Shown here piece after piece: positions 1 to 27,506 of a stretch of 64,000 nt of DNA. The stretch covers positions 16,692-80,691 of the forward strand of contig CAZABS010000001.1 of assembly GCA_964483635.1 (NCBI GenBank). The letters are read 5' to 3'. Position numbers and translations under genes: made by a program. Within the stretch, counting starts at the first letter, position 1. Every line of letters starts with the position of its first letter. Under the pieces are notes generated by a model. The model was not told where the DNA came from, did not search any database, and saw nothing but the letters and a program-made list of their open reading frames with translations. This stretch comes from an uncultured Bdellovibrionales bacterium. GTDB lineage: Bacteria; Patescibacteriota; Minisyncoccia; Moranbacterales; UBA1568.

Positions 1-180
1 GCAAGAGTGCGAACTTGCAAAATCCCTCGAAATGCGAATACAACAGTAGGACGATTGCTCTACGAAAGCGATCCTGATTGGCAGTGTCTGGAATTGCCTC
101 ACATTGATTGTGGAGGAACCGGAGCTCCTCAGTACGCCAGGCAAGTTCCTCTTCCAGTTGCGAGCGGAACTCGGAGAGTT

Positions 181-1368
181 TCATGCTCCAGGAAGGACCC
201 GTTCACGAACAAATGCGATGCGCTCATTAAGTGGGCCAGGACTATTCTTCCCACCACCCGATGTCAGCTCGACAAAGGCAGCATCCATCTTCACTTCTTT
301 CATGACCGTTTTGAGTTGTTCCAGCTGCGCCTCCGAATCGAGATCCACAGCATCGAGACCCCGCTGAATGCCGACGGTAAACGCTTCGAACTGATAGATT
401 CCGAACCCACGAACGAGGCCAGTCCGCGTCTTGTTCGCTCGACTGAAAGCAGTGTCGCCGAGCGTTTTCGCGAGCACGTCAAACGTCTTTTGAAAGACCC
501 GCTCCTCACGCTCGTAGTCGAACTCAATGGGAGCATCTGGATCGGAAATCGCCTCCATGTATTCCGTAAGGAAGTCCGTGACGTCGTGCCGGAAGCGGTG
601 GCGCCAGTTCTTCAAAGCAAAGAACCGCAAAACCAGCTCTTTGTCGTAGGCCCCATAAAGCTGTTCTTCAGATATCGTTGAAATGCAGAGTTTGAATGAC
701 TCGGATGTATCGGCCAACCGGTTGATGAAGTCATTGAATCGCGGATCCAGCAATCGAATCGTGCAGTTTCTCAATTGCTGGGCGGTGAGCGGCTCACCAC
801 CAGTATTCAGTCGCTTGAACATGTGGTACTTGAACTTGGGATTGCTGCCCCGACGGATTACTTCGACACGCACAAACGACCGGCGCAGCTTTATCTGTAG
901 CGCGGTACCAAGATCGTCATACGTCTTTCCATTGAGTCGTGGGAGGATATCGCAATCCTGCAATATAAGTTTGTCACCCCTTTGAACCGGTGGGCGAAGG
1001 TGAGCAGCGTCCAGCATCCCGCGGAAGTGGAGATAAGAAGAGAGTCGTTGTAGACCGTCGATGAGGAGCTTCTTGTTATCTTCCTCTTCGACCATGTAAA
1101 TCGGAGGAACAGGCATTTCAAGAAGCAGTGATTCAATGAATCGGGATCGGGCACCCTCCGACCACTGAAAGAGCCGTTGATAGTCAGGGCGGATGTCCAA
1201 TTCGCCAGTCTCGACCATATCCGCAAGTTCGTTGAATGAGATGTCGAGGCTTTGGGTGTGGACACTCTTGAGCTGGACATCGAGATCTCGGATGAGATCA
1301 ACGACGCTTTCATCGTTCCCTGGAACCGGCATTGCTAACCTCGCTTGCAAGTGAGTGGTGTACCTCAA
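181..1368 (-). CDS. DUF262 (GmrSD N-terminal-like, ParB/Srx-fold) domain protein; last gene of the RM operon
   Basis: Motif IRPDYQRLFQWSEGARSRFIESLLLEMPVPPIYM matches the DUF262 (D/E)xQR...W signature. No HNH/DUF1524 half is recognisable. The gene lies 34 bp downstream of the REase on the same strand. Confidence 0.6.
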   Translation of the reverse strand: MRYTTHLQARLAMPVPGNDESVVDLIRDLDVQLKSVHTQSLDISFNELADMVETGELDIRPDYQRLFQWSEGARSRFIESLLLEMPVPPIYMVEEEDNKKLLIDGLQRLSSYLHFRGMLDAAHLRPPVQRGDKLILQDCDILPRLNGKTYDDLGTALQIKLRRSFVRVEVIRRGSNPKFKYHMFKRLNTGGEPLTAQQLRNCTIRLLDPRFNDFINRLADTSESFKLCISTISEEQLYGAYDKELVLRFFALKNWRHRFRHDVTDFLTEYMEAISDPDAPIEFDYEREERVFQKTFDVLAKTLGDTAFSRANKTRTGLVRGFGIYQFEAFTVGIQRGLDAVDLDSEAQLEQLKTVMKEVKMDAAFVELTSGGGKNSPGPLNERIAFVRERVLPGA

Positions 1369-1401
1369 GGCAGTCCATAGCTTCGTCCAAATACCGATTG
1401 G

Positions 1402-2268
1402 CTATTCGAAGCGCGCTTCATACGCCTTGGCCAAGTTGCTGATGAACTCGTCCCAGCGCAATCCGCTTCCAACCGGAGGTACATCGCTCTCTATTTGTCC
1501 TGTATTTGGGTCATATGCGACGACTGAGATGCCTTCGAGCAGATGCGCAGCGTCGGCCTCAGTCTCTCGGCCACCTGCACGGATCAGTCGTTTTACGGCA
1601 CGGTCGATGAGGTGACGGGTGGGTCGCTGGGACGGCAAGTGGGAAACGGGCGAGGGCTCGACTCCTGGTGGCACAGCTGAAATTGGCTCGCGATCCAGAT
1701 CAGCAGCCAATTCGGACGAATCACCTTTTTCCGCAACCTCTGCTTCCGCCTGCTCCGCCTCTATCGCGTCTTTGCTTCCGACTTCTTCGTAGGTCGGAAT
1801 CACCAGCACTCCCCCTACGACAGCGAAAGGGAATTTGAGGTGCAAGTTAACCGCAAAGGTCCGGAGATCGCCGAACCGGTTCCAGATTGCCCGCCCAACG
1901 GCGAGGTTCACGGGCTTGAGTTCAATGGCAAGGCGCAGGCCATCGAGTTCATTAGTCTCGGAGACGTCAGCATTGGTAGTGCGAAGCGCGCCGGCAACTT
2001 TGCGTTCCCCGACGATTGCGCCTGCGAGACTGGGGAGTTTGGCTTTGAGGTCATGCAAGAGTGCTCGGCCGAGTGCGTTCGATAGTCGAATCTGAGCCGC
2101 CTTCTTTGGCCCAGCGGCGAGCCCGCGTTGCTCGCGGACGTAGGCACTAACAGCGACAATGTAGTTTGATATGACACATGGATCGAGGGATGCGAGCCGA
2201 TCGATTGGTTCGATGCCCGTAGGCTCCGGGTCTTTCTTCTTGCGCGGCGACTTCCTTCGCGTAGCCAT
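1402..2268 (-). CDS. Putative Type II restriction endonuclease (PD-(D/E)xK-like)
   Basis: DGLRLAIELKP fits a D-x(n)-E-x-K catalytic motif. The start overlaps the MTase stop at 2268, implying translational coupling in an RM operon. Confidence 0.4.
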   Translation of the reverse strand: MATRRKSPRKKKDPEPTGIEPIDRLASLDPCVISNYIVAVSAYVREQRGLAAGPKKAAQIRLSNALGRALLHDLKAKLPSLAGAIVGERKVAGALRTTNADVSETNELDGLRLAIELKPVNLAVGRAIWNRFGDLRTFAVNLHLKFPFAVVGGVLVIPTYEEVGSKDAIEAEQAEAEVAEKGDSSELAADLDREPISAVPPGVEPSPVSHLPSQRPTRHLIDRAVKRLIRAGGRETEADAAHLLEGISVVAYDPNTGQIESDVPPVGSGLRWDEFISNLAKAYEARFE

Positions 2269-3164
2269 TACCGCCCAATTGCTTGCGCCCTGGACGCAGG
2301 GGTCTGCGGTAGGGTGCGGACGATCTTTAGATCGACGGTCAAACTCCCAAGAGCAGCCAATCGCGCTTCGATCATCTGAACATAGGCCGGCTCGATCTCG
2401 ACACCAATGCTGTTGCGTCCGGTCTCGACCGCCGCGAGTGTCGTGGTACCAGTACCGAGGAATGGATCTACGACGGTGTCACCCGCAAAGCTGAACATCC
2501 GAATGAGGCGGCGGGGAATCTCGATGGGATAGGGTGCTGGATGACCCTTGCGAAGCTGGCCGGTGACATCCGCCCAGACCGGCGCATACCATTTCATGTA
2601 GTCCTCGGTTTCGATGCGCGATCGACGCTCCATCTCTTGAGTGGGCTTGCGGTAGCCGCCTGGTTTCCGGAAGAAGAGAATATGCTCAATGTCGTTCTTG
2701 ACGATTCCGTTCGGGAGATTGGGTTTGCCGAGGAAACGAGAAGACCTGGAAGCCTCAAGTTTGATGTTGGCAACCTTGAGCCATCGAATAGGGGTCAAGT
2801 TGTCAAAGCCCAGCTTGCGTGCCCGTACTTGAAGATCGCCGGAGAGTGGCAAGACGTAGTGACGCCCACCAGCACGGCGTGAGACACACACGTCACCGAC
2901 AACACATGCGACGCGACCACCTGGCACGAGGATGCGCAGACATTCCGCCCACACCTTGTCGAGCTCGTCGAGAAAAACCTCATAGGAAGCGATATTCCCG
3001 AGCTGAGCGTCGTGATCGGGATAGGTCTTCAGTGAACCATACGGAGGACTGGTGCAAATGAGGTGGACACTCTCAGTAGTAATGGCCGCGAGCGAGCGAG
3101 CATCGCCCTCGTAGACCATGTGGTGGGTGAATCCAGCAGAGCGGCGTTTTCCCTGGTTTGGCAT
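2268..3164 (-). CDS. DNA methyltransferase, beta-class N4-cytosine/N6-adenine family
   Basis: TSPPY catalytic motif IV precedes DPFLGTGTT (FxGxG AdoMet motif I), the order typical of beta-class MTases in the N6_N4_Mtase family. Confidence 0.85.
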   Translation of the reverse strand: MPNQGKRRSAGFTHHMVYEGDARSLAAITTESVHLICTSPPYGSLKTYPDHDAQLGNIASYEVFLDELDKVWAECLRILVPGGRVACVVGDVCVSRRAGGRHYVLPLSGDLQVRARKLGFDNLTPIRWLKVANIKLEASRSSRFLGKPNLPNGIVKNDIEHILFFRKPGGYRKPTQEMERRSRIETEDYMKWYAPVWADVTGQLRKGHPAPYPIEIPRRLIRMFSFAGDTVVDPFLGTGTTTLAAVETGRNSIGVEIEPAYVQMIEARLAALGSLTVDLKIVRTLPQTPASRAQAIGR

Positions 3165-3182
3165 CAGGTTCTTCCTGGTGAA

Positions 3183-3386
3183 TCAGACTCGGTTCTGTTG
3201 CTCCAAGAGCGGCCACTGATCGGCAACGTACCTCTCGGCAGCGTCCCGCACCACCCAGGCCACCGAGACCTTCTTCTGCCTAGCGATCTCTTCGAGGGTT
3301 CGATAGAGGTCGGGCGGGAAGGTAACTGACGCACGCGGTGCGCTCGTCGTTTTGGCTTCGGGATGCGGTTTCGTGACTCGACTCAT
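3183..3386 (-). CDS. Ribbon-helix-helix (CopG/Arc-like) small regulator, putative RM controller
   Basis: It is 67 aa. VTFPPDLYRTLEEIARQKKVSVAWVVRDAAERYV is the beta-strand plus two-helix RHH pattern. It is the first gene of the minus-strand RM operon. Confidence 0.5.
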   Translation of the reverse strand: MSRVTKPHPEAKTTSAPRASVTFPPDLYRTLEEIARQKKVSVAWVVRDAAERYVADQWPLLEQQNRV

Positions 3387-3467
3387 CGGGTGCAGACCTC
3401 CAGACGCACCACTTTACACCGCCGTGGTGCACTCGTAAACTAAAAGCTCTTTCTTCGAGGACTGGTC

Positions 3468-4964
3468 ATGGGCAAGACCGGTTCCACCAAGCGTGTCGGC
3501 ATCTGGATTCGGGTCTCTACCGAGGATCAGGTGCGGGGTGAGAGCCCCGAGACCCACGAGCGTAGGGCTCGGGCGTACGCCGAAGCCAAGGAGTGGTCGG
3601 TCGCCCAGATCTACCGCCTGGATGCCGTTTCTGGGAAGACCGTCAAGGAACACCCCGAAGCCAAGCGGATGCTCCAAGACATCCGAGCAGGTCATATCAC
3701 CGGTCTCATCTTCTCGAAGCTCGCCCGCCTCGCACGGAACACCAAGGAACTCCTGGAGTTCGCCGAGTTCTTCCGGGAAGAGGAAGCCGACCTCGTGTCT
3801 CTCGCGGAATCGATCGATACGTCGACTCCGGCCGGTCGGCTCTTCTACACCATGATCGCTGCCATGGCTCAGTGGGAGAGAGAGGAGATCGCCGAGCGGG
3901 TCGCCGCCTCCGTTCCGGTACGCGCCAAGATGGGGAAGCCCTTGGGCGGAGCCGCTCCCTTCGGGTACCAGTGGCTGGATGGCAAGCTCCTCCCGGATCC
4001 CAAGGAGGCTCCGGTTCGGAAGCTTCTCTACGAACTCTTCCGAGAGCATCAGCGGAAGAAGACGGTCGCAAGGCTCTTGAGTGAGAAGGGTTACCGCACC
4101 CGGAACGGCTCAGCCTTCTCCGATACCACGGTCGCCCGGCTTGTCCGTGATCCAACCGCCAAGGGAGTCCGCCGCGCCAACTACACCAAGACCACGAACA
4201 GTAAGAAAGCCTGGGAGCGGAAGCCCGAGAGCGACTGGGTACTCCACGAGATTCCCGCGATTGTCCCCGAGGATCTCTGGAACGAGTGCAATGCCATCTT
4301 GGATGCCCGGAAGGACACCGGGAAGCGTCCGGCCAAGAAGGTGACCCACCTCTTCTCGGGAGTGACCTATTGCCAATGCGGTAGCAAGATGTATGTACCC
4401 TCGAATACCCCGAAGTACGTCTGCACCCAGTGCCGGAACAAGATCCCAATCATTGATCTCGACGCCGTCTTTCATGAGCAGCTGAGGGGGTTCCTCTTCT
4501 CTCCCGAGGAACTGGCTGTTCATCTGCGGGCAGCCGACGGTGCGCTCCGGGAGAAGGAGGAACTCCTCCAGGTACTCTCCCTGGAACGCGGGAAGCTCAC
4601 CGGAAAGATCGAGCGGCTCCACGAACTCTACGAAGTCGGCTCCATCGACAAGCACGGCTTCGGGCTGAAGTACCGCCCGATGGCCGAGCGCCTGGCGCAG
4701 CTCGACGACGAGATCCCGAAGACCCATGCCGAAGTGGACGTCATGAAGATCGCCCACCTCTCCCAAGAAGAGATCCTGGCCGAAGCAAGGGATCTCTTCA
4801 CTCGTTGGCCAACCCTCCCGGGAGACGAGAAGCGCCGCATTGTCGAAACCATTACCGAACGGATCACTATCGGTAAGGATGACATTGAGATCGACCTCTA
4901 CTACGTCCCGCCGGGACTCGGTGAAACCAAAGCCCGTCCCATTTCTACTCCTTCTTTCAATTGA
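3468..4964 (+). CDS. Large serine recombinase (integrase type)
   Basis: N-terminal resolvase catalytic domain (VGIWIRVSTEDQ with the Ser nucleophile, and LIFSKLARLARN). A recombinase domain follows, then a C-terminal zinc-ribbon (CQCGSKMY...CTQCRNK) and a coiled coil. Total length is 498 aa. Confidence 0.9.
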   Translation: MGKTGSTKRVGIWIRVSTEDQVRGESPETHERRARAYAEAKEWSVAQIYRLDAVSGKTVKEHPEAKRMLQDIRAGHITGLIFSKLARLARNTKELLEFAEFFREEEADLVSLAESIDTSTPAGRLFYTMIAAMAQWEREEIAERVAASVPVRAKMGKPLGGAAPFGYQWLDGKLLPDPKEAPVRKLLYELFREHQRKKTVARLLSEKGYRTRNGSAFSDTTVARLVRDPTAKGVRRANYTKTTNSKKAWERKPESDWVLHEIPAIVPEDLWNECNAILDARKDTGKRPAKKVTHLFSGVTYCQCGSKMYVPSNTPKYVCTQCRNKIPIIDLDAVFHEQLRGFLFSPEELAVHLRAADGALREKEELLQVLSLERGKLTGKIERLHELYEVGSIDKHGFGLKYRPMAERLAQLDDEIPKTHAEVDVMKIAHLSQEEILAEARDLFTRWPTLPGDEKRRIVETITERITIGKDDIEIDLYYVPPGLGETKARPISTPSFN

Positions 4965-4974
4965 TGGTGAATAC

Positions 4975-5280
4975 GCGATGAATCCTCATGGCCGCGTTGC
5001 CTTTTTGCCATTCGTCCTGATCAAGCTTAAGTGCCAGAAACCAAAGGGTTATTCCGAGAACCCTAAGACTATCGGCGAGCACGTGAGGAAACGCCGGATG
5101 GAGCTTGGGCTGACGCTTCGGGAAGCCGGGAGGCTTATGGGGGTGACTGAGTACACAGTCATCAATTGGGAAGGCGGCCACTGTGAGCCCTCCGTCAAGA
5201 GCTCTCGGGCGATCCGATCCTTCCTGTACTATGACCCATTGCCGGAGCCGGACACCCTCGGCGTCGACCGGACAACCTGA
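4975..5280 (+). CDS. XRE-family helix-turn-helix transcriptional regulator
   Basis: IGEHVRKRRMELGLTLREAGRLMGVTEYTVINWE is a canonical XRE HTH. The gene starts immediately 3' of the recombinase. I chose the internal ATG at 4975; the ORF track's longer 4840 start overlaps the recombinase. Confidence 0.6.
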   Translation, partial: AMNPHGRVAFLPFVLIKLKCQKPKGYSENPKTIGEHVRKRRMELGLTLREAGRLMGVTEYTVINWEGGHCEPSVKSSRAIRSFLYYDPLPEPDTLGVDRTT

Positions 5281-5430
5281 CGGGTCTGGGAAGGAGGCCG
5301 ATTAGTCCGGTTCTGTCGCCACCGCGTCGCCGTGGCGAAGCTTCTCGGCCTGGATCCGGCGTTCCTGACTGTGGAGTTGCGAAGCCGCCGGAACAGTAAG
5401 CTCCCGTTCCACGTTCCGACGTCTCCAGCG

Positions 5431-6327
5431 TCACCCGCACACGTACGCGTACGGACTCCCTCCGCCCATGCAGTGGCCAGGACATTGATTGAGGCGAACT
5501 GCACCACTTGCGCAACGCGGCTCCGGAGCACTGACTGGCGGGTTGAAGCCCCAGCAACCGCACGCTTGCATTCCGTAGCCAGGAGGATATCCAGACTGCG
5601 CCGGCGTGAAGCCGTCTCGAATTGACACCCACGATCCCTGATTCAAGAACTGCGCGATCCGAGGACTAACCTGGCTTTCGAAATCGTAGGCCTCCCGCTC
5701 GAAACGGTTCCGCCGATCCTGGCAGCCGCCGCACTCTACGTACTGTCGGCTGTAATCACACTTGAACCGATCGGTTCCGCTTGCCCGGTACTGGCGAATA
5801 TGAACGACCTCATGAGCAAGCGTTGAGGCTGTCGCCAAGGTATCCCCTTTGAGGGAGACATCAAGGTAGATCCGTCCGCGATCGGGAGCCATGCCGTGCG
5901 CTCCTTGGAGCGGGCACCACCGTGTCTGGACGCCGTTGAGCTCCCCAAGCTGGATGATGCCGGCCGAGGTCAGTGTGTTGATAGCCTGCACGATGAGGTG
6001 CTGATCATCGAGCCGTCCGTCCCAGTTCGAGCATCGGGCAATGACGATCCCCGTGACGGTTTGATACGGTCCGGTACAGGCCTGGGTGCCGTACGTCTCG
6101 ATCTGCTCCCGTGGTGTCAAGGGGATGTTGGGAACATTGGATCGGGTGACACAGGCGAGTTTCTTGGCAGCCTCACACTTGGCGTGACAGGTCGGCTCGA
6201 TGAACTCGACCGGCGGGAAGTCGGTGCGTATCCGGCACTGTCGGTGACAGTCGGTATCGCAGGATTCAGCCTGTGCCACCGTAACAGCGCCCGCAAAGAG
6301 CAGAGCGAGAGCAATTCGACGAAGCAT
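5431..6327 (-). CDS. Secreted cysteine-rich protein with an HExxH zinc-metallopeptidase-like motif
   Basis: Signal peptide MLRRIALALLFAGAVTVAQAES. Many Cys residues and an AHEVVHIRQY motif are present. Start is set at the internal Met; the ORF track extends to 6399. Confidence 0.45.
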   Translation of the reverse strand: MLRRIALALLFAGAVTVAQAESCDTDCHRQCRIRTDFPPVEFIEPTCHAKCEAAKKLACVTRSNVPNIPLTPREQIETYGTQACTGPYQTVTGIVIARCSNWDGRLDDQHLIVQAINTLTSAGIIQLGELNGVQTRWCPLQGAHGMAPDRGRIYLDVSLKGDTLATASTLAHEVVHIRQYRASGTDRFKCDYSRQYVECGGCQDRRNRFEREAYDFESQVSPRIAQFLNQGSWVSIRDGFTPAQSGYPPGYGMQACGCWGFNPPVSAPEPRCASGAVRLNQCPGHCMGGGSPYAYVCG

Positions 6328-8062: not shown

Positions 8063-9007
8063 GTGGAGGCACCGGTGCCGCGTCTGAACGTTTTCGTGTC
8101 GGAAGAGCTGCACGATCTGATCGACAAGTGGCGCGGGCGCTTCAATTTGTCCGAGATATGTGCACGCGCACTGGAAGCAGAGCTTCGTGCCGTCGATATT
8201 GGAAAGGCAACCGACACACTCTTGAGTCGCGAAGGGCCGCGTTCTGAGTTCAGCAAACAGCTTCGGTCCCGACTTGGGTTGAGAGATGTCCTCATTGCCG
8301 AAACGGAACTAGTTGGCGAGCGGCTTCGGGAGCAATTGGGCAAACTGGCTGCAGCGTATGTAGACCAGTTCATCTCTGAGGGTGCGACGTTAGCTCTTGC
8401 AGGAGGAAAGCAGATTTGGGCGGTGGTGAACCAGCTACAACCGCGCAACGTTCTTGTTGCTCTCGCTGGAGTCGGATTCGCGAATGATTCGGAAGTTTTT
8501 GAAGCACACCCGAATACGAGTGTCACCATTGCGTGGCTCCGCTACCGCTCTGGATCTAAGGCGTATCGCGTGGGAGCAGCCGAGTTTTCCCAGTTGCTGT
8601 TTCCAATGGAAAATACGAAACAGAAGGTACGAATTGTTGTTGCGTCCTGTGCGCCGTTTGACACGAATTCGCCGTTCAGCGAACTACTCGGAACGGCAGC
8701 AGTCCGTTCGTTGGTAGAGGCGGGAGCAGTGGGTGACTTCTGTTACAACTTCTTTGATGCCGCTGGCGAATCCTTATTGCCGCCAATTGTCCCAGGGCTC
8801 GCGCGGTCACTAATCGACACAGAACACCTCCGCTCATTGGTCAATGATGACTCCGCGCATGTCTTACTTGTCGCCGGTGGTCGCGAGAAACATGACACGA
8901 TTGCACACACCATTCGGGCTCGACTGTGCAACGTACTTGTGACTAATAGAGAAACCGGAGAGTTCTTAATGTGCCTCGATCCTGATAAAGGTGTCGCACT
9001 AGCTTGA
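8063..9007 (+). CDS. SorC/DeoR-like regulator (putative sugar-binding effector domain) with an RHH-like N-terminus
   Basis: VLIAETELVGERLREQLGKLAAAYVDQFISEGATLALAGGKQIWAVV and a later LLVAGGREK resemble the SorC-family sugar-binding domain. The N-terminal 45 aa look RHH-like. Confidence 0.45.
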   Translation: MEAPVPRLNVFVSEELHDLIDKWRGRFNLSEICARALEAELRAVDIGKATDTLLSREGPRSEFSKQLRSRLGLRDVLIAETELVGERLREQLGKLAAAYVDQFISEGATLALAGGKQIWAVVNQLQPRNVLVALAGVGFANDSEVFEAHPNTSVTIAWLRYRSGSKAYRVGAAEFSQLLFPMENTKQKVRIVVASCAPFDTNSPFSELLGTAAVRSLVEAGAVGDFCYNFFDAAGESLLPPIVPGLARSLIDTEHLRSLVNDDSAHVLLVAGGREKHDTIAHTIRARLCNVLVTNRETGEFLMCLDPDKGVALA

Positions 9008-9729: not shown

Positions 9730-9790
9730 CCATCCCCTCACTGTAGCGCCAGTCGAGGGGGAAACCCCTCGACTCATCGAGGAGGTAATC

Positions 9791-10522: not shown

Positions 10523-10611
10523 GCCATGTCCTTAGTCAAGCCGTGCAGGGCGGCTTGATCAAGTCGATCGAAAGAAGAAATCCGTGACTCATCGCCACGG
10601 ATCAAAATACT

Positions 10612-11178: not shown

Positions 11179-11316
11179 GTCGGTCTCCTTCTCAGTGATG
11201 AAAGTACCGACTTCATCTTGGAACGCAGTGCGCTTCTTGCCATGACGCGGAAAGGTGCTCGGGGTGCACCTCTCCCACGGCTATCTCACTCTCGTGAGAT
11301 TCCCTAGTCTGAGTGA

Positions 11317-12498: not shown

Positions 12499-12541
12499 GT
12501 TGTGGAAGCGTCACGGGAAACAAGAGAGGGAGGAGTGAACC

Positions 12542-13054: not shown

Positions 13055-13063
13055 AAGGCTCCC

Positions 13064-20280: not shown

Positions 20281-20301
20281 CTGACCAACCCCCGCGGTTT
20301 T

Positions 20302-21168
20302 CTACGGCAAATCGGGATCAAAACCAACACAGTTTTGTTTGCTTTCTGACGGAGGCAGGCCGGCAGGGTCGCCAATCACCTGGCCAGCGAACAGATCGTC
20401 GAAGCGCTGGGATGCGTCAATGCGATTGGATGTGTTGAAGAAGATTGATTCCATCCAGTCATCTACCCCTATCCACCGCGGACCACTGACAACGTAGCGC
20501 AAACACCGGCGGGCCATTGCGGTCAAACGCCTCGCGGACACAACAGCGGGATCAGTGACTGCCGTAGCGCCGTCAACCATAAGAATGCTCTGGTCCGCCT
20601 TGCTTGATTGCATGAGGGCGGACCTGAGCTTGGGAGTATCCGGGTAAGTAAGAGCGATCAGTCTCTCCACATCGTCCCGCACCCCGTTCCCGTTCGAGTC
20701 AATCCCTGCGACCGTTGCTTTACCTGCCTCACCTGGATCAGGCGGGAGTCCGACCGCTGCCTCGGGAATGTCGGCGCTAACAGCGATTGCCGGTGTGAGC
20801 GACACCCGCGAAGGATTCGCAAATTTGAGCACGATCGGCGTGACGATCTGTCCGGCGATGATCGTATTGCCCGGTACTGACACATTGACGTAGGGCTTGC
20901 CTTGACTGGTCGTTCCCGCAGCGTTGGCCAGGGTCACTCCATTGGGGAGCCCGCTCACCGCAAGCTGCACCGGTGCGTTCACGGTGAGGGGTGAGGTGTT
21001 CTTGAGCGTGACCGTCGTATCGTAGGTATTGGTCGTCCGATTGAGGACGAAACCAGTCTTGGTGATCGCGAAGAGATTGGTCGCATCGGAGACGACGGCT
21101 AAGGCTGGTGAGCCGATCGCCAACCCGGCCAACGCTAGTACCAAGGTGAGGAAGCGACGAGAGGTCAT
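20302..21168 (-). CDS. Secreted hypothetical protein (signal peptide)
   Basis: MTSRRFLTLVLALAGLAIGSPALA signal peptide. Probably co-transcribed with the flanking surface-protein genes. Confidence 0.5.
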   Translation of the reverse strand: MTSRRFLTLVLALAGLAIGSPALAVVSDATNLFAITKTGFVLNRTTNTYDTTVTLKNTSPLTVNAPVQLAVSGLPNGVTLANAAGTTSQGKPYVNVSVPGNTIIAGQIVTPIVLKFANPSRVSLTPAIAVSADIPEAAVGLPPDPGEAGKATVAGIDSNGNGVRDDVERLIALTYPDTPKLRSALMQSSKADQSILMVDGATAVTDPAVVSARRLTAMARRCLRYVVSGPRWIGVDDWMESIFFNTSNRIDASQRFDDLFAGQVIGDPAGLPPSESKQNCVGFDPDLP

Positions 21169-21176
21169 AGGCGTTA

Positions 21177-21821
21177 TCAGACAGGGTTAAGCGAGGTGGG
21201 CTTGCGGAACCGCCGGAGCCCAATGAGCACAACGCTCAAGATGAAGAGACTCGTGACAATGAGAATGAGCGTGTTCGGCTCCGGGACAGCGTTTGAGCCT
21301 CCACCCAAGCGGACGGTATCCGAATAGATCGAGAGGGGATCTGTCTCGCCCACGTTGTAGAGGAGAAGCGCATTGGCTCCCGTTGGATCACTGGTTGTTG
21401 GTACCGGCATCCCGCTGCTGTCGAGGAGGAAGAACGAGAAGGCATCAGGAAAGGAGGTCGGATCAGCCGGGCTCCCTGTGGTATCGAAGGTGAAGGAGAG
21501 CGAGCCGCCAAAGGTGAAGCCTTGGAGGTACTCGTTGAAGAACTCACTGTCACCGAGCGTGACGGTCCCGGGGAGCGCCCCGCTCACATCTCCGGTTGGA
21601 GTCGATGTTCCGAGGGTTCCATCACTCGTGAAATCGGAGAGCGTTACCGTATTGGCCGGCGTCCCTCCATCGAGAAAATCGAAAGCCAGGCTCCCCGTCG
21701 TACCCGAAAGTGCCGAGGTGTCGACGGTGACGTGAGTCGGGGCAGCGTACGAAGTGGTTGGCAGAGTAGCGACGAGGAAGGCGATCACACGGATCATCCT
21801 TCCCAAGGTATGGGTATACAT
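21177..21821 (-). CDS. PEP-CTERM sorting-signal protein (putative exosortase substrate)
   Basis: N-terminal signal peptide (MIRVIAFLVATLPTTSYA). The C-terminus VPEPNTLILIVTSLFILSVVLIGLRRFRK is VPEP followed by a TM helix and basic tail, i.e. the PEP-CTERM architecture. Start is at the internal Met; the ORF track extends to 21863. Confidence 0.7.
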   Translation of the reverse strand: MYTHTLGRMIRVIAFLVATLPTTSYAAPTHVTVDTSALSGTTGSLAFDFLDGGTPANTVTLSDFTSDGTLGTSTPTGDVSGALPGTVTLGDSEFFNEYLQGFTFGGSLSFTFDTTGSPADPTSFPDAFSFFLLDSSGMPVPTTSDPTGANALLLYNVGETDPLSIYSDTVRLGGGSNAVPEPNTLILIVTSLFILSVVLIGLRRFRKPTSLNPV

Positions 21822-22162
21822 GATTTCTCCCTCGCGGCCGCCTGAGTGTCTGCGGTGCTTCAATGACTTACCGGTATCCGTCAGCTTTCAAAAGAAAGCA
21901 ACGAATGTACCTAGATAAAATATAGAAAGAAAACAAGAAACTGTCGAGAGAGGACTTAGTGACGTGTCAAGTATCTCGACACTTCTTCTTTGATAGTTGA
22001 GGCTGACAGTGGGAGATTGATGGCGACTGATGCGACGAGGCGCCACAGCGGACAGGGCGTCGACTCTAGGCTTCTCGCTCCTCAGATGAATAGCCGCACT
22101 GTCGGGCACATCGCTTCGCCGTTAGACTCATCGCGGAGTTCACCAAGAACGAGGAGGAGCCC

Positions 22163-23059
22163 ATGCAACATGCCCTGAGTGCGCGCAGTACGTTTCATCC
22201 GATTCGCATCGAGGATACCGGCCACGATCTTTCCGTCATTCGAGAGGCACTCGCCGAGCACTCCTTCGACCGCCTCGTACTGGCCGAAGGCGATTCCTGG
22301 TTCGATCTCTTTACGCCTCTCTTTGCCCGTTATCAACCGAACCTCCTCTCTGCTCTGCGGGTGCCGCGGCCCACGGTACTCGTCGATCTTTCGCGCATCG
22401 GCGACACCGCCAAGGACATGACGTCGGGTTGGCAAGCGCTCCGCACGGCAGAGATACTTGACGAGATTCCCTTTAACGCGTGGCTCGTAAGTGCCGGTGG
22501 GAATGATCTCATTGACGTCTTCGGAGGTCTCTTTGCTAAAGCCGCGCTCAGCAAACGCTCCGGATTCGCCAGGCTGACTTCACAGGAGGAAGGCATTCTC
22601 AAGGCACCCGCCAGCGCTCATGACGTGTACGACGAGATCATCGCGAACATCTTGAAGCTCGTCGCGATGCGCGATGCAAGTAGGAGTAATCAGAAGACAC
22701 CGATGATTCTTCACGGCTACGACTATCTGCAGCCGCGTCCCGCACCGGCGGTCGTTGTCCCTGGTATTGCCGAAGGGCCTTGGATTCACCCCGTCCTCAA
22801 GGCGCATGGTCTCAGTGCGGCTGAGATGCGCCAGATTGCGCATGACGTGATCAACACGTTCAATGATCGCCTCGGTAAGGCGCTTCATGGAAAGCCAAAC
22901 GTGTATTTCCTGGATCAACGCGGCAAGCTTACCCTGGCTGCTCCGGAGACGACTGCCGCGTCCAATGATTGGGCAGATGAAATCCATCCGCTGCCGGGAG
23001 GGTTCGACAAGTTGGCCAAGCTGTTCTGGAATCCGCTCTTGGCACAGTTGCTTGCATGA
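22163..23059 (+). CDS. SGNH/GDSL-family hydrolase
   Basis: Block I LAEGDSWFD, block III SAGGNDL and block V DEIHP (DxxH) match the SGNH catalytic blocks. Confidence 0.55.
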   Translation: MQHALSARSTFHPIRIEDTGHDLSVIREALAEHSFDRLVLAEGDSWFDLFTPLFARYQPNLLSALRVPRPTVLVDLSRIGDTAKDMTSGWQALRTAEILDEIPFNAWLVSAGGNDLIDVFGGLFAKAALSKRSGFARLTSQEEGILKAPASAHDVYDEIIANILKLVAMRDASRSNQKTPMILHGYDYLQPRPAPAVVVPGIAEGPWIHPVLKAHGLSAAEMRQIAHDVINTFNDRLGKALHGKPNVYFLDQRGKLTLAAPETTAASNDWADEIHPLPGGFDKLAKLFWNPLLAQLLA

Positions 23060-23613
23060 GCACGACGGTGTGGCAGTTGAGGAGCACCCAACGCTTGCGA
23101 ACTTCGGTTCAACGGGGAGCTGTGATTCTCACGACGCTCCTCGTCGGCTGTGCGGCGCCGCCCTATCGCTGCGTCGACCGCTCATCGATTCCCGAGGTAC
23201 CGACCGAGATCAGTGTTGGCGACGAAAGAACCTTCTTTGTCGACGCCAAGCTTCCCTGGAATCGGAGCGGTGTACGAGTGAGCGCCGGACAGATGTACCA
23301 GATATCGGTCGGCGCATCGGATCCACCCTGGATGGATTGGTTTATTCCCGCTACACCAGAGTCCGGTTGGTCACCGTGGTGGCAGCCACTCGGCGAGGTT
23401 CTCCGCTCTGCGGCTCGGGTACCAACCGCCAAGATGTCCGCGCTCGTTTGCAGCGCCGGTCAGGAAGATGGGAATGCTCTTCCCGTTGGAGAGATCGACG
23501 GCCGCCCGTTCCCATCAAGTGGCGAGCTCCTCTGCTTTGCCAATGACTGGGCGGGGCACTATGACAATAACCGGGGGTGTGTTCCCGTGACCATGCGCCG
23601 ATTGGAACCGTGA
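23056..23613 (+). CDS. Putative lipoprotein, hypothetical
   Basis: Lipobox-like LLVGC after an N-terminal hydrophobic region. The start overlaps the preceding stop (ATGA). Confidence 0.45.
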   Translation: MSTTVWQLRSTQRLRTSVQRGAVILTTLLVGCAAPPYRCVDRSSIPEVPTEISVGDERTFFVDAKLPWNRSGVRVSAGQMYQISVGASDPPWMDWFIPATPESGWSPWWQPLGEVLRSAARVPTAKMSALVCSAGQEDGNALPVGEIDGRPFPSSGELLCFANDWAGHYDNNRGCVPVTMRRLEP

Positions 23614-23623
23614 AGCGCGAACA

Positions 23624-24688
23624 CTACGGGAGTTCTTCCTTGTGGGTGTACCGAACGTCGGGGGCTCTCCCGAGGTTGATGCTCACCCCGCGTAGATAGG
23701 CGGACTTCGACGAGCGCCGTTCGCCGGCTGCGTCAGTCCATGCGTATTCGATCCGATCGAGTGCTGCATCGGTTGATTGTCCGGTGCTGATCGAAAAGCC
23801 ACATTGTCCTTCAGCACAAAGCTCCAGCTCGTTCCGCTGACCATCCTCTTCGAGATCAATGGCTTCGAGGACGAGACGAAACTGGACGGCCAGCATGTCG
23901 TGATTTTCTGTAATGAAGGGGGAGATCTCAGATTCAACGAGGCGTCCGAGCCGCATAGCATAGCGTGCAGCATCAGTCGCAACCTCCGCTTGAACGGCTG
24001 CATAGGCGGCTTCGGCGATCTGATGACGATCGATGTCTGGCATATCGGCGCGCAGCGCATCAAGGAGCGGTTTGAGATCGGAGTAGATATGGAGGGACAC
24101 CTTCCGCGCGACGCAATCTTGTTCCAGATTGACGGCCAGGCGGGTCTTCTCCTTGTCTCTATAGAACCCGCCGTCTTTCGTTACGAAATGAATGTCATAG
24201 CGGCTCCCGAGATCGAGGACTGCTTCCCAGATGAGGGAGTCCTTGAACTGCTGATTCTTCAGACTGTTCGGCGGAGTCTCGTCGTTGACACGCCCGAGCG
24301 CAGACTGAGCGTGCGCCAGCGTCATCGGCACGCGAACGAAAAGTGGAGCGAGCTCCTTAAGCCGCGTTCCGATGGCTTTCGTGATTCCGTCCTCGAAGGG
24401 TGCCTCGTACGGCCGATGGGCTCCCAGAATGAGACGCAGTTCGCGAAACCGGCGCCGGATTTCGTCAGCCGCTTCAAGCCCGGCTTTGAGGATCTGCTTT
24501 TCGATCTCTCCTTCAACCACTTCCGGCAGGCCAATCCGTCCCTGGTGTCGATGGATGACATGGAGAAGTGCTGGCCCGAGCCCGCCACGGAGAAGCAGGG
24601 TCTCGCGCCAAATATTCGTGTCCAGGACGACGCAGGGTTTTCGATCAATCGATTCCATACGGTATCGCAGCCGCCTTCCGTAGACCAA
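23624..24688 (-). CDS. PIN-like domain protein (N-terminal VVLDTNIW motif), hypothetical defence-associated
   Basis: N-terminus KPCVVLDTNIWRETLL resembles the first acidic strand of PIN/PIN-like (DUF4935-type) domains. The remaining ~300 aa have no recognised motif. An alternative start MESIDRK lies near 24658. Confidence 0.4.
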   Translation of the reverse strand: MVYGRRLRYRMESIDRKPCVVLDTNIWRETLLLRGGLGPALLHVIHRHQGRIGLPEVVEGEIEKQILKAGLEAADEIRRRFRELRLILGAHRPYEAPFEDGITKAIGTRLKELAPLFVRVPMTLAHAQSALGRVNDETPPNSLKNQQFKDSLIWEAVLDLGSRYDIHFVTKDGGFYRDKEKTRLAVNLEQDCVARKVSLHIYSDLKPLLDALRADMPDIDRHQIAEAAYAAVQAEVATDAARYAMRLGRLVESEISPFITENHDMLAVQFRLVLEAIDLEEDGQRNELELCAEGQCGFSISTGQSTDAALDRIEYAWTDAAGERRSSKSAYLRGVSINLGRAPDVRYTHKEELP

Positions 24689-24987
24689 TCGCCATCTCTA
24701 CCCCATTTGTTCCAATCGCGCTAGGCTATGAACGTGGAGATCGAAAAATGCCATCGATACATTGTTGGAAGCGTCTCGACGAAGCGTTAGGTGATCTGGT
24801 CATCCTTGGCGAAGCGCGCTAGCCGTTGGAAGACCCAGTCGATCTCCCAACCTTGCTGTCGCGACCAACGCCCCACAGCATGTCCCGCGATACGGAGCGC
24901 CACTTTGAGAATCAATGTGCGTCACCGTCCTTGAGGGAATCGATAACTCCAAGCCTCTCATCGTCAAAGTGATTTGCGCCAACACCT

Positions 24988-26280
24988 ATGCACGGTAAAG
25001 ATCCTCACCAAGCGCTCAAGACGACCGTCCTCGCGAAAGCCCAATCTGCTCATGCCGATCTGGTACTCGTGAAACAGCAGTGGGGCAGGGAGGACGTTGC
25101 TTTCAGTGTCCACGCGCATCCAAACTCCTTTAGTAGCTCGGGCATTCAACCTACCGATTTTCTCGAAGTGCTCGGCTTCGAGAGGAGTCCCTGTGTTCAC
25201 CTTGGCGAGTGCTTTGTACGATGGGTAGCCGAGGGCTTTGATCTGACTTCATTTGCCCAGAACTTCGATCAGGCGCTCGCCGAACTGCGGGAGGCGGAAC
25301 GTCATCTTGAGCCGTGCGGTATTGTTCTCAGGCAGTCAGAGGGGTGGGGTTTCTACTTCGGGAAGCCTTCCCAAGAAGTGCATCGTTACTACGGCATGTG
25401 TGGGGATGGGCACACGGGATCCAAAGTTACTTCGCTCAAACAAACTGAAGACGAGAGCTTTCTCTTCCGATTCTCCTGGCTCGACACCGGGCACGAGAAG
25501 GGGTGGATCACCCACTATCGTCCGAAGCATCCACCTTTGTCATCGGAGATGCGAGGTGTCTTTTCATTCCTGGGCTTCGCAGAGTTCGACGGGTGCCCAG
25601 AGTTTGAGTTCGAACCATGCTATTGGCGATCGATCGAGAAGCGCGGTGACGGCATCATGTTTGATCCCGCCACGGATTATGCCCACCGCTCCTTCGATGC
25701 CCACGCGCAGGAGTTTTCACAGGGCGTGGAGAAGCTTTTGGCAGCCAGTACGACGGTCAAAGCGTCTGGTCTCTCTTTCCTGGGAGCGTCATCGACGTTC
25801 GTCGCGATCGAACCGACCGCCGTGAGCGTGGTTTCATCGAGCGTACGGGATGCCCGCGTCGATTCCGATTTCGATGTGGCCATCTCCTTTGCCGGAACAG
25901 AGCGAAAGTATGCCGAGGCACTTGCCAAGTTTGTGCGAGACGCTGGTTTCGAGGTCTTCTACGATAACTTCTACCCGGAGCAGCTCTGGGGCAAGAACTT
26001 GATTGACTTGTTCGACCAAATCTACCGAAAGCAATCCCGCTACTGCGTCATCTTCGTCTCAAACGAATACAACGACCGGATCTGGACCAACCACGAGCGT
26101 AAGAGCGCCCAGGCGCGAGCCATCAAGGAGAAGGGGGACGAATACATCCTTCCGATCAAAGTAGACGAAGCGGAGCTTACAGGCATGCCTCCGACTGTCG
26201 GATATCTGCCGATCGCTCTTGGCATCAAGAAGATTGCGGAACTGCTCGTGAAGAAACTGAGTACAACGTCGAGGCGATAG
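24988..26280 (+). CDS. Unknown N-terminal domain fused to a C-terminal TIR-like domain
   Basis: C-terminal ~140 aa: DVAISFAGTERKYAEALAKFVRDAGFEVFYDNF...SRYCVIFVSNEYNDRIWTNHE...YILPIKVDEAEL follows the TIR/TIR_2 pattern (DVFISY(A/S)GEDR ... F.D ... vviSpnYl.S.WC..El). The ~290-aa N-terminal region is unrecognised. Confidence 0.55.
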   Translation: MHGKDPHQALKTTVLAKAQSAHADLVLVKQQWGREDVAFSVHAHPNSFSSSGIQPTDFLEVLGFERSPCVHLGECFVRWVAEGFDLTSFAQNFDQALAELREAERHLEPCGIVLRQSEGWGFYFGKPSQEVHRYYGMCGDGHTGSKVTSLKQTEDESFLFRFSWLDTGHEKGWITHYRPKHPPLSSEMRGVFSFLGFAEFDGCPEFEFEPCYWRSIEKRGDGIMFDPATDYAHRSFDAHAQEFSQGVEKLLAASTTVKASGLSFLGASSTFVAIEPTAVSVVSSSVRDARVDSDFDVAISFAGTERKYAEALAKFVRDAGFEVFYDNFYPEQLWGKNLIDLFDQIYRKQSRYCVIFVSNEYNDRIWTNHERKSAQARAIKEKGDEYILPIKVDEAELTGMPPTVGYLPIALGIKKIAELLVKKLSTTSRR

Positions 26281-26382
26281 GCGCTTTTCCTTTGGCGGCG
26301 ACAATATACCGGTGGACGTGTGTTGCAGGGTAGTCGCTGCTCGGCCGTTGTGGCACCGCGAGCTGCGTATGGTCGTGCGCAA

Positions 26383-27075
26383 TCAACTCTCTCCACCCCC
26401 AACCGCCTGTTCTCGTCTTTGGCGCAGCATTTCAGCCTCGCGCGCGCGATCCTCTGCGTTGAACACGTCGACGCTGAGTCTCCGAAAACCCGTACTGAAC
26501 GAATGAACGTCCACCTGCAACTTCTCCAGGCTCTGTGCGATCGCGTACAAATGCGGTTTACCGAGCTGATAGTCTCGCTTCTGCTCGGTCATATCAACGG
26601 TTGCCGGGTGCCGGTATACCTCCCCGGACGCGCTGCGGTAGCTCAGGTCGATCGAAAGTACCGCATCGAGCTTCCCCTCGCCGTCCTTTGCCATGTCGGT
26701 GTAGAGCGAGAAGCGCTCCTCACCCGGACCGAGATATCCGAGTCCGGTCGTGAAGAACGATGAAGCTGTGAAATCCTTGAGGAGCGATTCCGCCGGAGCG
26801 CCACCCTTCACGACCTGAGGGGTGAATGCTACATCGAAGGCTGGACCGAGGCCGATATTGCGAATCCGGAGGCGAACAATATTTATCGCTATGTCCAGCG
26901 ACTGAGCCGTAATTTCCACACGCGGTTCTGTCTGTACCCTCCGCAGCTCTCTCGTTTCGGACACCAGCCGCGCCGTGAGCGCAGCATAGATGATGGTTGC
27001 AAGCGTAACGGCGCCAGTGAAGACGACGTTGAGGCTGCCGGAGTTCGTATTGAGAAACGTCAAGAGATCACTCAT
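26383..27075 (-). CDS. Single-pass membrane protein, hypothetical
   Basis: N-terminal TM helix VVFTGAVTLATIIYAALTARLV. Convergent with the TIR gene, and the last gene before the GC drop. Confidence 0.4.
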   Translation of the reverse strand: MSDLLTFLNTNSGSLNVVFTGAVTLATIIYAALTARLVSETRELRRVQTEPRVEITAQSLDIAINIVRLRIRNIGLGPAFDVAFTPQVVKGGAPAESLLKDFTASSFFTTGLGYLGPGEERFSLYTDMAKDGEGKLDAVLSIDLSYRSASGEVYRHPATVDMTEQKRDYQLGKPHLYAIAQSLEKLQVDVHSFSTGFRRLSVDVFNAEDRAREAEMLRQRREQAVGGGES

Positions 27076-27506
27076 TTGTCAGTCCTCAAGTTGTGCCAAG
27101 TCTGTGGACGCATGCGATGTCTCCACCGAGTACTGTGCGCACTTGGGACCTCTTCGCGTCATGCACGCAGCCCGTGAACACGCGAGCATGAATGCATGGA
27201 TATTAGCCAAGACAAGGTGGAACGATTTCGCGAGCGCTTGAAGCACGAGTTCGGCGAGGAGCTATCGTTCGAGGAGGCGAGCAAGCGCTACATGAAGTTC
27301 CTTCATCTCTTCTGGATACTTTCTTACCGGCCACCGAAGTCGGGGGATGCTCCCTCCGAGCCTCCTCCTCCACCATGGCTTTGACGGCTCGCACCTTATC
27401 CAGTAACTTGAGAAGAGCAGGATCCTGACGCTCATACCTGGTTCGAACATCGTTGAGGAATGCCGACACGAACAAGAATAGATTGGGAACGCGTTTTGAT
27501 TCCATC

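Follow-up and report, generated by a model that had tools for sequence, protein, structure and literature searches.

How does a long block of GC-rich DNA come to stand beside the housekeeping genes of a low-GC bacterium, where does it end, and what put it there? The question is raised by the 64,000-nucleotide stretch analysed here (the window), positions 16,692 to 80,691 of contig CAZABS010000001.1 in the assembly GCA_964483635.1, which is titled as an uncultured Bdellovibrionales bacterium and placed by GTDB in the Moranbacterales. Bacteria of the candidate phyla radiation (CPR, or Patescibacteria) are attached to other microbes and have very small genomes, and little is known of their mobile elements. 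We consider it very probable that the window holds the right part of one integrated mobile element of ~40 kb in a chromosome of Candidatus Moranbacteria. Its integration module appears to comprise a large serine recombinase, here called rec2, whose gene starts at the left end of the element, outside the window, and whose detached 3' tail lies at the right end, and a small terminal gene of 62 amino acids (aa), small62. As an island the block is ordinary; what stands out is the integration module, the family and the CPR host.

The two sides of the window differ strongly in composition. The GC content, computed directly, is 0.573 in positions 1-27,200 and 0.470 in 27,451-60,000, and in 1-kb steps it runs at 0.52-0.61 from 1 to 27 kb and at 0.42-0.51 from 28 to 60 kb. 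A maximum-likelihood two-segment fit placed the change point at 27,390-27,395 (best 27,395), alike for the whole window and for 20-35 kb, and the GC content at third codon positions of the long open reading frames (ORFs) is ~0.60-0.79 on the left and ~0.38-0.52 on the right. With three segments taken from each side, deviations in tetranucleotide usage correlated at r 0.85-0.88 within the island and 0.89-0.93 within the core, against 0.55-0.74 between island and core. The GC step is real and far beyond chance, and with the tetranucleotide contrast it gives the block the composition of an integrated genomic island. An earlier note, made from the sequence alone, had seen the drop in GC and proposed these computations; the profile is indeed not uniform, and both measures separate the two sides. 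The same note held that the block was at least 27 kb long with its left end outside the window, which proved correct. A contig assembled in Logan from SRR12762304 (L092) adds 11,041 bp of GC-rich DNA to the left of position 1, so that the block reaches at least 11.0 kb beyond the window, and the left end of L092 is the N-terminus of rec2, the second large serine recombinase of the element. Taking 11,041 bp from L092, with L094 compared, we estimated the length of the element as 1,244 + 11,041 + 27,466 bp, or ~39.8 kb, of which ~12.3 kb probably lies to the left of the window. On the right, the edge had been placed at 27.2-27.45 kb; the GC step does fall there, but the functional boundary is probably at ~27,466, 71 bp to the right of the change point, as judged from the recombinase tail described below.

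The junction of the block with host DNA is physically real. Per-sample Logan contigs were retrieved by exact-protein look-up. In SRR12762304, L001/L092 is 100% identical to window positions 1-5,549, and the 18-kb contig L002 covers 9,778-27,856 at 99.99% identity, crosses the GC step and stops at the anticodon of the host tRNA-Leu (27,856). Because L002 joins the GC-rich DNA to the first host gene, called MKFQ, and the homologues of MKFQ belong to Moranbacteria, the GC-rich DNA is joined to CPR DNA. From a separate sample (SRR30164250) and a strain 98.4% identical, contig L007 aligns without gaps to 27,148-29,543 and thereby spans the GC step, small62, MKFQ and the complete tRNA-Leu, and continues for 1.6 kb into the following host gene, part of a type IV secretion system (T4SS). 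A metagenome-assembled genome (MAG) of another species, classified by GTDB in the Moraniibacteriota (L009, JBDTWF010000066.1), has the same junction of small62 and the tail with MKFQ. Thus the continuity across 27.0-27.9 kb that the earlier note wished to see checked is provided by independent contigs, and proteins of the island and of the core are encoded together on a single NCBI contig of 92,034 bp. On the low-GC side, contigs from two other samples (L004 and L005) both stop at 27,838. Since contigs from both sides break inside the tRNA-Leu, this gene is a branch point of the assembly graph.

The low-GC side is conserved core of Candidatus Moranbacteria, in agreement with the earlier view that it carries the housekeeping genes of a CPR-like organism. 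MKFQ has 880 homologues, and the named ones all come from Moranbacteria, Moraniibacteriota or Patescibacteria. A profile search of genome collections with the MKFQ alignment returned 80 GTDB loci, most of them labelled Moranbacteria or Parcubacteria, in which the usual gene order is DUF4446, infB, cca, tRNA-Pro(CGG), MKFQ and tRNA-Leu(TAG), with a tRNA-Leu(CAG) sometimes accompanying the tRNA-Pro(CGG). The same T4SS genes follow the tRNA-Leu in the two closest loci, L081 and L087 (VirB4 80% identity), and in the closest relative, L008 (MKFQ 82% aa identity), cca and tRNA-Pro stand directly before MKFQ at normal GC. The slot taken by the GC-rich block in the window therefore holds just cca and tRNA-Pro(CGG) in the relatives. 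This insert-free arrangement, which the earlier note had suggested looking for in the closest genomes, was seen in L008, L081, L087 and most of the 80 loci, all from other species; a scan of genome contigs for an empty site with the 1000-aa host protein adjoining the tRNA-Leu gave no match. The tRNA-Leu itself, near which the junction had been placed, is a bystander. It is separated from the end of the element by 356 bp of host DNA including MKFQ (27,467-27,822), and we rejected it as an attachment site because it follows MKFQ in most of the 80 related loci, with or without an element; the target that we infer, tRNA-Pro(CGG), would lie at the other end of the element.

The evidence for this target begins with rec2. 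The recombinase rec1 within the window (3468-4964), to which the earlier note had attached its mobile element, does not define the ends; these are given by rec2 at the unseen left end and by its tail at 27203-27466. In its L094 copy rec2 has the catalytic domain, the Recombinase domain and the zinc ribbon of a large serine recombinase (Resolvase 8e-19, Recombinase 9e-12, Zn_ribbon_recom 3e-13). Full-length proteins of the family end in '...KPFRRWSxxxxFSEL RAFVRDVRTF...DPE...', and in the tRNA-adjacent members everything after '...FSEL' is gone and replaced by tRNA antisense. We built a hidden Markov model (HMM) from 52 full-length family tails and searched it against 33,232 six-frame segments. 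The top hit was the minus-strand frame at 27,206-27,514 of the window (E = 9.6e-7), the next were those of L007 (1e-6) and L009 (4.7e-5), and after these the E-value rose to 0.56. The alignment starts at HMM position 1, which is the codon TCG at 27,464-27,466, and the changes between the window and L009 in this frame are mostly synonymous. The idea that 27.2-27.5 kb is the remnant of a whole second recombinase gene was abandoned, as tblastn gave merely E = 0.04 and the tail HMM resolved the match.

Members of the small62 family, the other part of the module, were found by an iterated HMM in almost all of 80 rec2 loci, most often directly upstream of rec2. Nine relatives, the closest to the window's element, have the two genes convergent and overlapping at the 3' end of rec2, which is the order expected when the ends of the element join in a circle. 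The gene has no Pfam or NCBIfam hit. It was first suspected to be host DNA since L007 and L009 share it, and the HMM shows it to be a gene of the family; we regard it as a conserved partner of rec2 and a candidate for either a directionality factor or a regulator.

Where rec2 genes abut tRNAs, they do so with precision. The seven tRNA-linked loci involve six tRNA identities (tRNA-Tyr twice, Trp, Ser, Ile, Pro-CGG and Gln), and the distance between the end of the conserved rec2 block and the tRNA 3' end given by ARAGORN is 1 nt in six of them and 3 nt in the seventh. The junction codon in the window, TCG, is the reverse complement of CGA, the end of tRNA-Pro(CGG) (...CACTCCGA), and the same codon stands at the junction in L147, a relative that is integrated at tRNA-Pro(CGG). 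Directly before the crossover codon, positions 27,455-27,463 of the window read ...GAGGAATGC. Two contigs with the order DUF4446-infB-cca-tRNA-Pro (L089 and L090, GC 0.478) both end in ...GGCACTC, 3-4 nt before the tRNA-Pro 3' end, so the graph branches there too. L089 comes from a sample that also holds a 99.4%-identical strain, and the segment in these contigs is likely orthologous to the cca-tRNA-Pro segment of the window's host. The junction codon, the synteny and these break points together single out the 3' end of tRNA-Pro(CGG), which directly precedes MKFQ, as the most likely bacterial attachment site (attB).

We conclude from the comparison of family members that the attachment site of the element (attP) probably lies inside the rec2 ORF and that integration would swap the C-terminal tail of the recombinase. 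In the mechanism proposed, attP between the '...FSEL' codons and the 'RAFVRDVRT' tail would recombine with the attB at the 3' terminus of tRNA-Pro(CGG). Integration would leave the tRNA intact and exchange ~45-90 codons at the 3' end of rec2; on excision these would return, and small62 may act as the partner, either as a directionality factor or as a regulator. The empty attB is predicted to read tRNA-Pro ...GGCACTCCGA joined directly to CACGAACAAGAATAG. Among unintegrated, attP-type members (L095-L174) the crossover codon is most commonly CGG, then TGC, then TCG, with CTG, CTC, TGG and TCC as rare forms. These classes match the last three tRNA bases in the integrated members (CGG for Ser and Trp, TGC for Tyr and Ile, TCG for Pro), and the class of the target tRNA might thus be predictable from the rec2 junction codon.

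Several points speak against this reconstruction and must be weighed. The ends of the element are represented by the rec2 N-terminus on the left (L092) and the rec2 tail on the right, with a shared core of ~3-6 nt, and the left junction, between tRNA-Pro and the rec2 3' end, lies outside all sequence compared. Synteny, contig break points, the 3-6 nt core and analogy are the grounds for the attB assignment; L089 and L090 are tied to the window's organism by sample, by GC (0.478) and by the expected divergence, and no contig spans the two. L094, the closest relative of the element, abuts a Ser-like tRNA end and not tRNA-Pro. Neither a circular form nor an empty site from the same population occurred among the sequences compared. 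Around the proposed attP core there is no clear dyad symmetry (0.34-0.36 against a mean of 0.25, which is weak). Two proteins of the backbone, of 445 and 180 aa, have no assigned function, and replication and transfer are left unexplained. Finally, there is no significant tRNA fragment or direct repeat at the right end, where the earlier note had advised a search for att repeats: in Smith-Waterman alignments the score for tRNA-Pro was 12, below the mean of 15-17 for shuffled sequences, and the highest score among 304 tRNAs, 31, was reached in 33 of 100 shuffles. Such an absence is expected because the crossover would fall in the last few tRNA bases, and it is not positive evidence. A 15/15 match between the window and L094, ATACCTGGTTCGAAC, was also rejected as an att motif, since it merely encodes the conserved DVRT/WFEP motifs.

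The element has relatives with a common backbone, which runs in the order rec2, 445-aa P-loop protein, XRE, 180-aa protein, RHH, rec1, SorC-like, RadC, two FtsK/TrwB-like ATPases and small62. Among these genes stand, as cargo, a restriction-modification system, GmrSD, HEPN, FRG, PIN and TIR defence genes, and PEP-CTERM/HAF surface proteins. The sister element L094, a 23-kb contig of GC 0.57 from SRR32414321, a sample that also has a related cca contig, carries rec2, a 429-aa P-loop protein, XRE and the 180-aa protein, followed further on by a methyltransferase, RHH and rec1, and then SorC-like, RadC, ATPase, a 170-aa protein and the 1002-aa ATPase. Its backbone blocks share 79-88% nucleotide identity with the window element, it is without the FRG, M23/Lcl_C, HEPN and GmrSD cargo, and its rec2 ORF runs free of stops into the Ser-like tRNA 3' end at the end of the contig ('...GLRRGRDSNPR'). 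A search of JGI metagenomes with rec2 gave 280 relatives at 50-60% identity, many of which carry the 445-aa, XRE, 180-aa, RadC and ATPase genes. More distant rec2-like genes (35-38% identity over the full length) occur in five of the 80 GTDB Moranbacteria/Patescibacteria loci, and their 3' ends overlap tRNA-Gly(GCC) in L031, L041, L050 and L032 and tRNA-Ser(GGA) in L080. The first four lie 2-5 kb downstream of the MKFQ locus and the last lies ~8 kb from it on the upstream side; the L050 recombinase is directly preceded by a small62-like gene. In these five loci the GC of the element side is equal to or lower than that of the host, so the notion that the element is always GC-richer than its host was dropped, and high GC is a trait of the window subfamily (L094 0.57, metagenome relatives 0.48-0.60) and not of the family. 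No description of rec2-family elements was found in the literature searched; the family is apparently both widespread and undescribed.

Some single loci are worth recording. In L127 (2271-5434) rec2 abuts a tRNA-Ile(GAT), followed by an ORF for a LAGLIDADG endonuclease and a full-length 16S rRNA gene; this element therefore sits at the edge of an rRNA operon, and the 16S sequence could identify its host. The host of L147 could not be told from its tRNA-Pro, which matches Moranbacteria at 58/72 positions and E. coli at 50/72. The Logan contigs of SRR12762304 break within the island at 5,549 and 9,778 and so bracket the region that is most unlike L094, which suggests that variants of the element coexist in this sample.

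The features are collected in Table 1. The gene content that the earlier note had listed for the block was recovered (as DUF262, methyltransferase, serine recombinase, XRE, RadC, the ATPases, PIN_12, TIR_2 and PEP-CTERM), and no housekeeping gene was recognised on the GC-rich side of the window. The backbone is the more conserved part: rec1 is kept in L094 (88% nucleotide identity) and is also present in L118 and L111, and the module from RadC to the 1002-aa ATPase has 80% nucleotide identity to L094 and is carried by many metagenome relatives. The defence cargo at the left is missing or substituted in L094, and the position of the variable cargo by the right end is occupied by other genes in the strain of L007 and in the MAG L009. 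The PEP-CTERM protein has a sorting domain and passes both curated cut-offs, and a second NF038129-family paralogue of 126 aa without the sorting tail lies in the element at L092 6042-6422. The best matches of the ATPases are PADLOC mad8 (~1e-18) and PHROG 5156 (~1e-50, function unknown). A MADS defence system is not indicated, as the mad8-like ATPase matches (~1e-18) do not form part of a multi-gene mad1-mad8 set and the sole further match was mad3 (E 0.0025), on the same 1002-aa ATPase. Sequence searches of Pfam, PHROGs, PADLOC and PDB gave no function for the 445-aa, 180-aa, 322-aa, 212-aa and 243-aa proteins.

Table 1. Coordinates of the element, its genes, the neighbouring host features and related loci (window positions unless a contig is named)
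Feature	Position	Strand	Basis or remark
Right-hand 27.5 kb of the probable ~39.8-kb integrated element	1-27466		GC, tetranucleotide contrast, L092, L094
Defence cargo: GmrSD_N/NsnA-like, 288-aa putative restriction partner, N6_N4 DNA methyltransferase	181-3164	-	Pfam, PADLOC
GmrSD_N/DUF262, NsnA-like	181-1368	-	Pfam; PADLOC NsnA 3.6e-58
N6_N4 methyltransferase	2268-3164	-	Pfam
RHH (CopG-like) regulator adjoining rec1	3183-3386	-	Pfam RHH_1 1.5e-6
rec1, internal large serine recombinase	3468-4964	+	Pfam Resolvase 1.1e-33, Recombinase 1.8e-17
Weak HTH_3/XRE-like protein, 3' of rec1	4978-5280	+	Pfam HTH_3 3.8e-4, below cut-off
SorC-like (Sugar-bind) regulator, backbone	8063-9007	+	Pfam 1.1e-18; counterpart in L094
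Backbone module: RadC (-), 393-aa ATPase, 170-aa protein, 1002-aa ATPase	10612-16072		Pfam, PADLOC, PHROG
RadC	10612-11178	-	Pfam 9e-43
393-aa TrwB/HerA/FtsK-like ATPase	11317-12498		TrwB_AAD_bind/DUF87 ~1e-9
1002-aa TrwB/HerA/FtsK-like ATPase	13064-16072		TrwB_AAD_bind/DUF87 ~1e-9
Surface cargo: 1369-aa PKD/HAF-repeat, 288-aa secreted, NF038129-family PEP-CTERM protein	16171-21821	-	
1369-aa PKD/HAF-repeat protein	16171-20280	-	Pfam PKD; TIGR02913 HAF repeat 216 bits
PEP-CTERM protein, family NF038129	21177-21821	-	NF038129 109 bits (cut-off 65); TIGR02595 22 bits (cut-off 16)
Variable cargo by the right end: PIN_12, TIR_2, 230-aa protein	23624-27075		Pfam; PADLOC PDC-S66/TIR
PIN_12	23624-24688	-	Pfam
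TIR_2	24988-26280	+	Pfam
small62, 62 aa, terminal element gene	27196-27384	+	Iterated HMM
Detached rec2 3' tail (SAFLNDVRTRYERQDPALLKLLDKVRAV...)	27203-27466	-	Tail HMM
Putative crossover region of the right junction (attR), GAATG/CCGACA	27464-27470		CCGA matches the last tRNA-Pro(CGG) bases
Host gene MKFQ, 103 aa, first host gene right of the element	27507-27818	+	Conserved Moranbacteria protein
Host tRNA-Leu(TAG)	27823-27907	+	ARAGORN; only tRNA found in the window
Host Gram-positive-type T4SS cluster	27957-42785	-	Pfam; VirB4, TraC-like, PrgI, CHAP/LysM hydrolase
434-aa protein, weak amidohydrolase match	60170-61474	-	In GC-rich patch 60100-62400
DHODH-like protein	61356-62369	-	In GC-rich patch 60100-62400
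rec2-like gene in GTDB contig	L031 12188-13846		
rec2-like gene in GTDB contig	L041 13816-15339		
rec2-like gene in GTDB contig	L050 12829-14714		
rec2-like gene in GTDB contig	L032 2827-4360		
rec2-like gene in GTDB contig	L080 131-1706		

Could the block have grown piecemeal, as an island of accretion or a hot spot of the kind that tycheposons form, with several elements and remnants gathered beside a tRNA rather than one excisable unit? The presence of two serine recombinases, the differing cargo beside small62 in the window, L007 and L009, the breaks of the Logan contigs inside the island and the relatives that have short inserts at this site, flanked by repeated tRNA-Pro 3' ends, would all agree with such a history. 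However, rec2 at one end and its own tail with small62 at the other would form one matched pair of left and right attachment junctions, L094 keeps the same gene order along the backbone (rec2, rec1 and on to the 1002-aa ATPase), which is met again in the metagenome relatives, and no second copy of the tail or of small62 exists in the window. We regard accretion as unlikely.

An integrative conjugative or mobilisable element, whose coupling-protein-like ATPases would dock on the neighbouring T4SS of the host, is likewise improbable in our view, although the earlier note had thought the element possibly conjugative or mobilisable. Both ATPases match TrwB_AAD_bind, TraG-D_C and T4SS-DNA_transf, RadC is common on conjugative elements, and the adjacent host T4SS cluster (27,957-42,785) has no recognisable coupling protein in Pfam. 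Yet the likeness of the ATPases to type IV coupling proteins is confined to the P-loop and the DNA-binding domain, with scores far below the curated cut-offs (39.5 bits for the coupling-protein equivalog, against 366). Their best matches, as noted above, are mad8 and a PHROG of unknown function, and their plasmid homologues sit on non-mobilisable plasmids in 234 of 296 cases. Scans with Pfam, PADLOC, PHROG and NCBIfam found no relaxase, T4SS component, replication initiator or virion gene in the element, several backbone proteins being unannotated, and the only VirB4 lies in the host core. The set of secretion system, relaxase and coupling protein of a conjugative element is thus lacking, no relaxase family was hit that would point to a mobilisable one, and use of the neighbouring host T4SS is speculation.

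The PEP-CTERM protein had led the earlier note to a diderm donor with an exosortase system. The cargo is confirmed, but such a donor does not follow from it, and direct transfer from an exosortase-bearing Gram-negative bacterium, captured by its CPR symbiont, seems to us a poor explanation of the block. In its favour, both the PEP-CTERM and the HAF-repeat proteins pass curated cut-offs, the GC of the block is 10 points above that of the host, and the best plasmid hit of the 393-aa ATPase is from Sulfitobacter (45% identity), near a serine recombinase. Against it, a 54%-identical PEP-CTERM homologue lies in the equivalent island of the MAG L009, 2.3 kb from small62, at least five other GTDB Moranbacteria/Patescibacteria genomes carry integrated rec2-family elements, the recombinase family being resident in several Moranbacteria genomes, and no exosortase was hit among the window ORFs scanned with Pfam. 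Because some Moranbacteria have a GC of 0.50-0.56, a CPR donor of higher GC suffices and has a likelihood no lower than that of a diderm, even if diderm bacteria may be the ultimate source of the PEP-CTERM and HAF genes.

A prophage or phage satellite is very improbable: serine integrases are common in temperate phages and the ATPases have weak PHROG matches to terminase large subunits (~1e-5), but Pfam and PHROG scans found no capsid, portal, tail or lysis genes and an IMG/VR search with rec2 was empty. An assembly chimera, the other reading offered by the earlier note, would require that a shared tRNA or short repeat had linked a foreign GC-rich contig to a CPR contig, and it is hardly credible. 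Every Logan contig that reaches the tRNA-Leu does break within it, and the contigs given by an exact look-up of VirB4 from the low-GC side belong to SRR12762287 and ERR8482633, with no match in SRR12762304 or SRR12762303, where the GC-rich contigs were found. But L002 itself crosses the step, L007 continues into the T4SS gene, L009 repeats the small62-MKFQ junction, and the protein encoded to the right of the step is specific to Moranbacteria. What remains of the earlier alternative is an integrated element of the serine-recombinase type in a low-GC, CPR-like genome.

How does this integrated element compare with known systems? Islands driven by tyrosine integrases are the classical tRNA-linked type. 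Like the tRNA-adjacent islands of the Islander/TIGER type, the window element is a block of foreign composition beside a tRNA, with the integrase at one end and variable, defence-rich cargo, and it is missing from related genomes. It differs in using a large serine recombinase in place of a tyrosine recombinase, and in that its crossover would fall at the very last tRNA bases with no tRNA fragment duplicated. With SCCmec (ccrAB) and the clostridial and Bacillus serine-integrase elements and phages (phiC31, A118, SPbeta) it has in common the arrangement of Resolvase, Recombinase and Zn-ribbon domains and an integration that is site-specific, into the 3' end of a conserved gene; some of these systems also carry two serine recombinases. 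The known targets of these large serine recombinases are protein-coding genes, and the element stands apart from them in its CPR host. We know of no described case in which attP lies in the recombinase ORF and the target is a tRNA 3' end.

The use of tRNA genes by large serine recombinases had been suspected only from a genome survey, in which 14 of 297 serine-integrase (S-Int) elements used a tRNA or tmRNA gene, a finding called previously unreported and in need of experimental proof (PMC7192596). A parallel in mode is offered by the SSV1-type ('suicidal') integrases of archaea, in which attP lies in the integrase ORF, the target is a tRNA and the gene is partitioned on integration (PMC7253208). 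These are tyrosine recombinases of archaeal viruses and plasmids, and their gene is split into two large pieces, whereas in the bacterial serine recombinase rec2 the C-terminal tail alone is displaced and a few tRNA-antisense codons take its place. Thus rec2 would share with SSV1 an attP within the integrase ORF and a gene split on integration, as far as can be read from the sequences, and it is similar in mode without being a member of that family. The family appears to combine a serine recombinase with a tRNA target and partition of the integrase gene. The tycheposons of Prochlorococcus are tRNA-seeded islands of streamlined genomes that carry cargo and defence genes and have tRNA-specific integrase clades (10.1101/2020.12.28.424599). 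They use tyrosine recombinases, leave partial-tRNA repeats and have backbone genes unrelated to those of the window element; the parallel is a conceptual one, of islands seeded at tRNAs in streamlined genomes.

Some features of the host side deserve mention. Besides the components listed in Table 1, the T4SS cluster includes four large proteins without a family match, and it is directly followed by a Xer-like tyrosine recombinase (42949-43980, Phage_integrase 4.5e-42), which may be the resolvase of chromosome dimers or the trace of an older element with the T4SS inside it. Further genes on the right are UvrD/PcrA, UbiA, KsgA, RpfB-like, ComM, LspA, PNPase, S15 and UMP-kinase-like. A second GC-rich patch (60100-62400, GC ~0.58) lies within the low-GC core between the NYN and S15 genes; its tetranucleotide signature fits both island and core poorly (r 0.62-0.69), and it is probably a separate small gene acquisition. 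In the relatives, the tRNA-Pro region contains odd nested or duplicated pieces (L008, and L077, L078, L081 and L085 upstream of position 10001). In L008 (4092-4296) the tRNA-Pro(CGG) is flanked by the inverted repeats CCCCGTACTAAAT/ATTTAGTACGGGG and nested in a degenerate tRNA-Pro-like gene, and in L081 and L085, less clearly in L078, the tRNA 3' end is repeated behind an insert of ~140 nt that follows the tRNA-Pro. Such pieces could be scars of earlier integrations there or mobile tRNA mini-elements. Thirteen other GTDB records with a Moranbacteria-type MKFQ locus bear the title 'uncultured Bdellovibrionales bacterium' (L023, L029, L032, L034, L055, L056, L063, L064, L070, L071, L073, L078 and L080). 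Most of them have tRNA-Leu(TAG) downstream and cca upstream of MKFQ, and this organism label is probably wrong for them.

For assembly practice, the locus shows that CPR contigs can contain a GC step that is sharp and yet genuine. How CPR bacteria acquire defence and surface genes is an open question, on which a 40-kb, defence-loaded element in Moranbacteria bears directly, and the recombinase family spans several Moranbacteria genomes and hundreds of metagenome contigs from soil, peat and sediment. We propose, tentatively and with somewhat less than even confidence, that rec2 marks an undescribed and widespread family of integrative plasmids or islands in which the recombinase targets the exact 3' terminus of a tRNA, different clades use different tRNAs, and attP lies in the recombinase ORF, so that integration would swap the tail and excision restore it. 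Such a family would be a bacterial, CPR-borne serine counterpart of the SSV-type integrases, and it may be a main vehicle by which CPR bacteria obtain defence and surface genes. Large serine recombinases are tools of genome engineering, and a clade with short, predictable targets at tRNA ends could be useful. For the elements themselves, an attP inside the recombinase gene predicts control by tail-swapping, in which the exchange of the tail together with small62 could switch between integration and excision.

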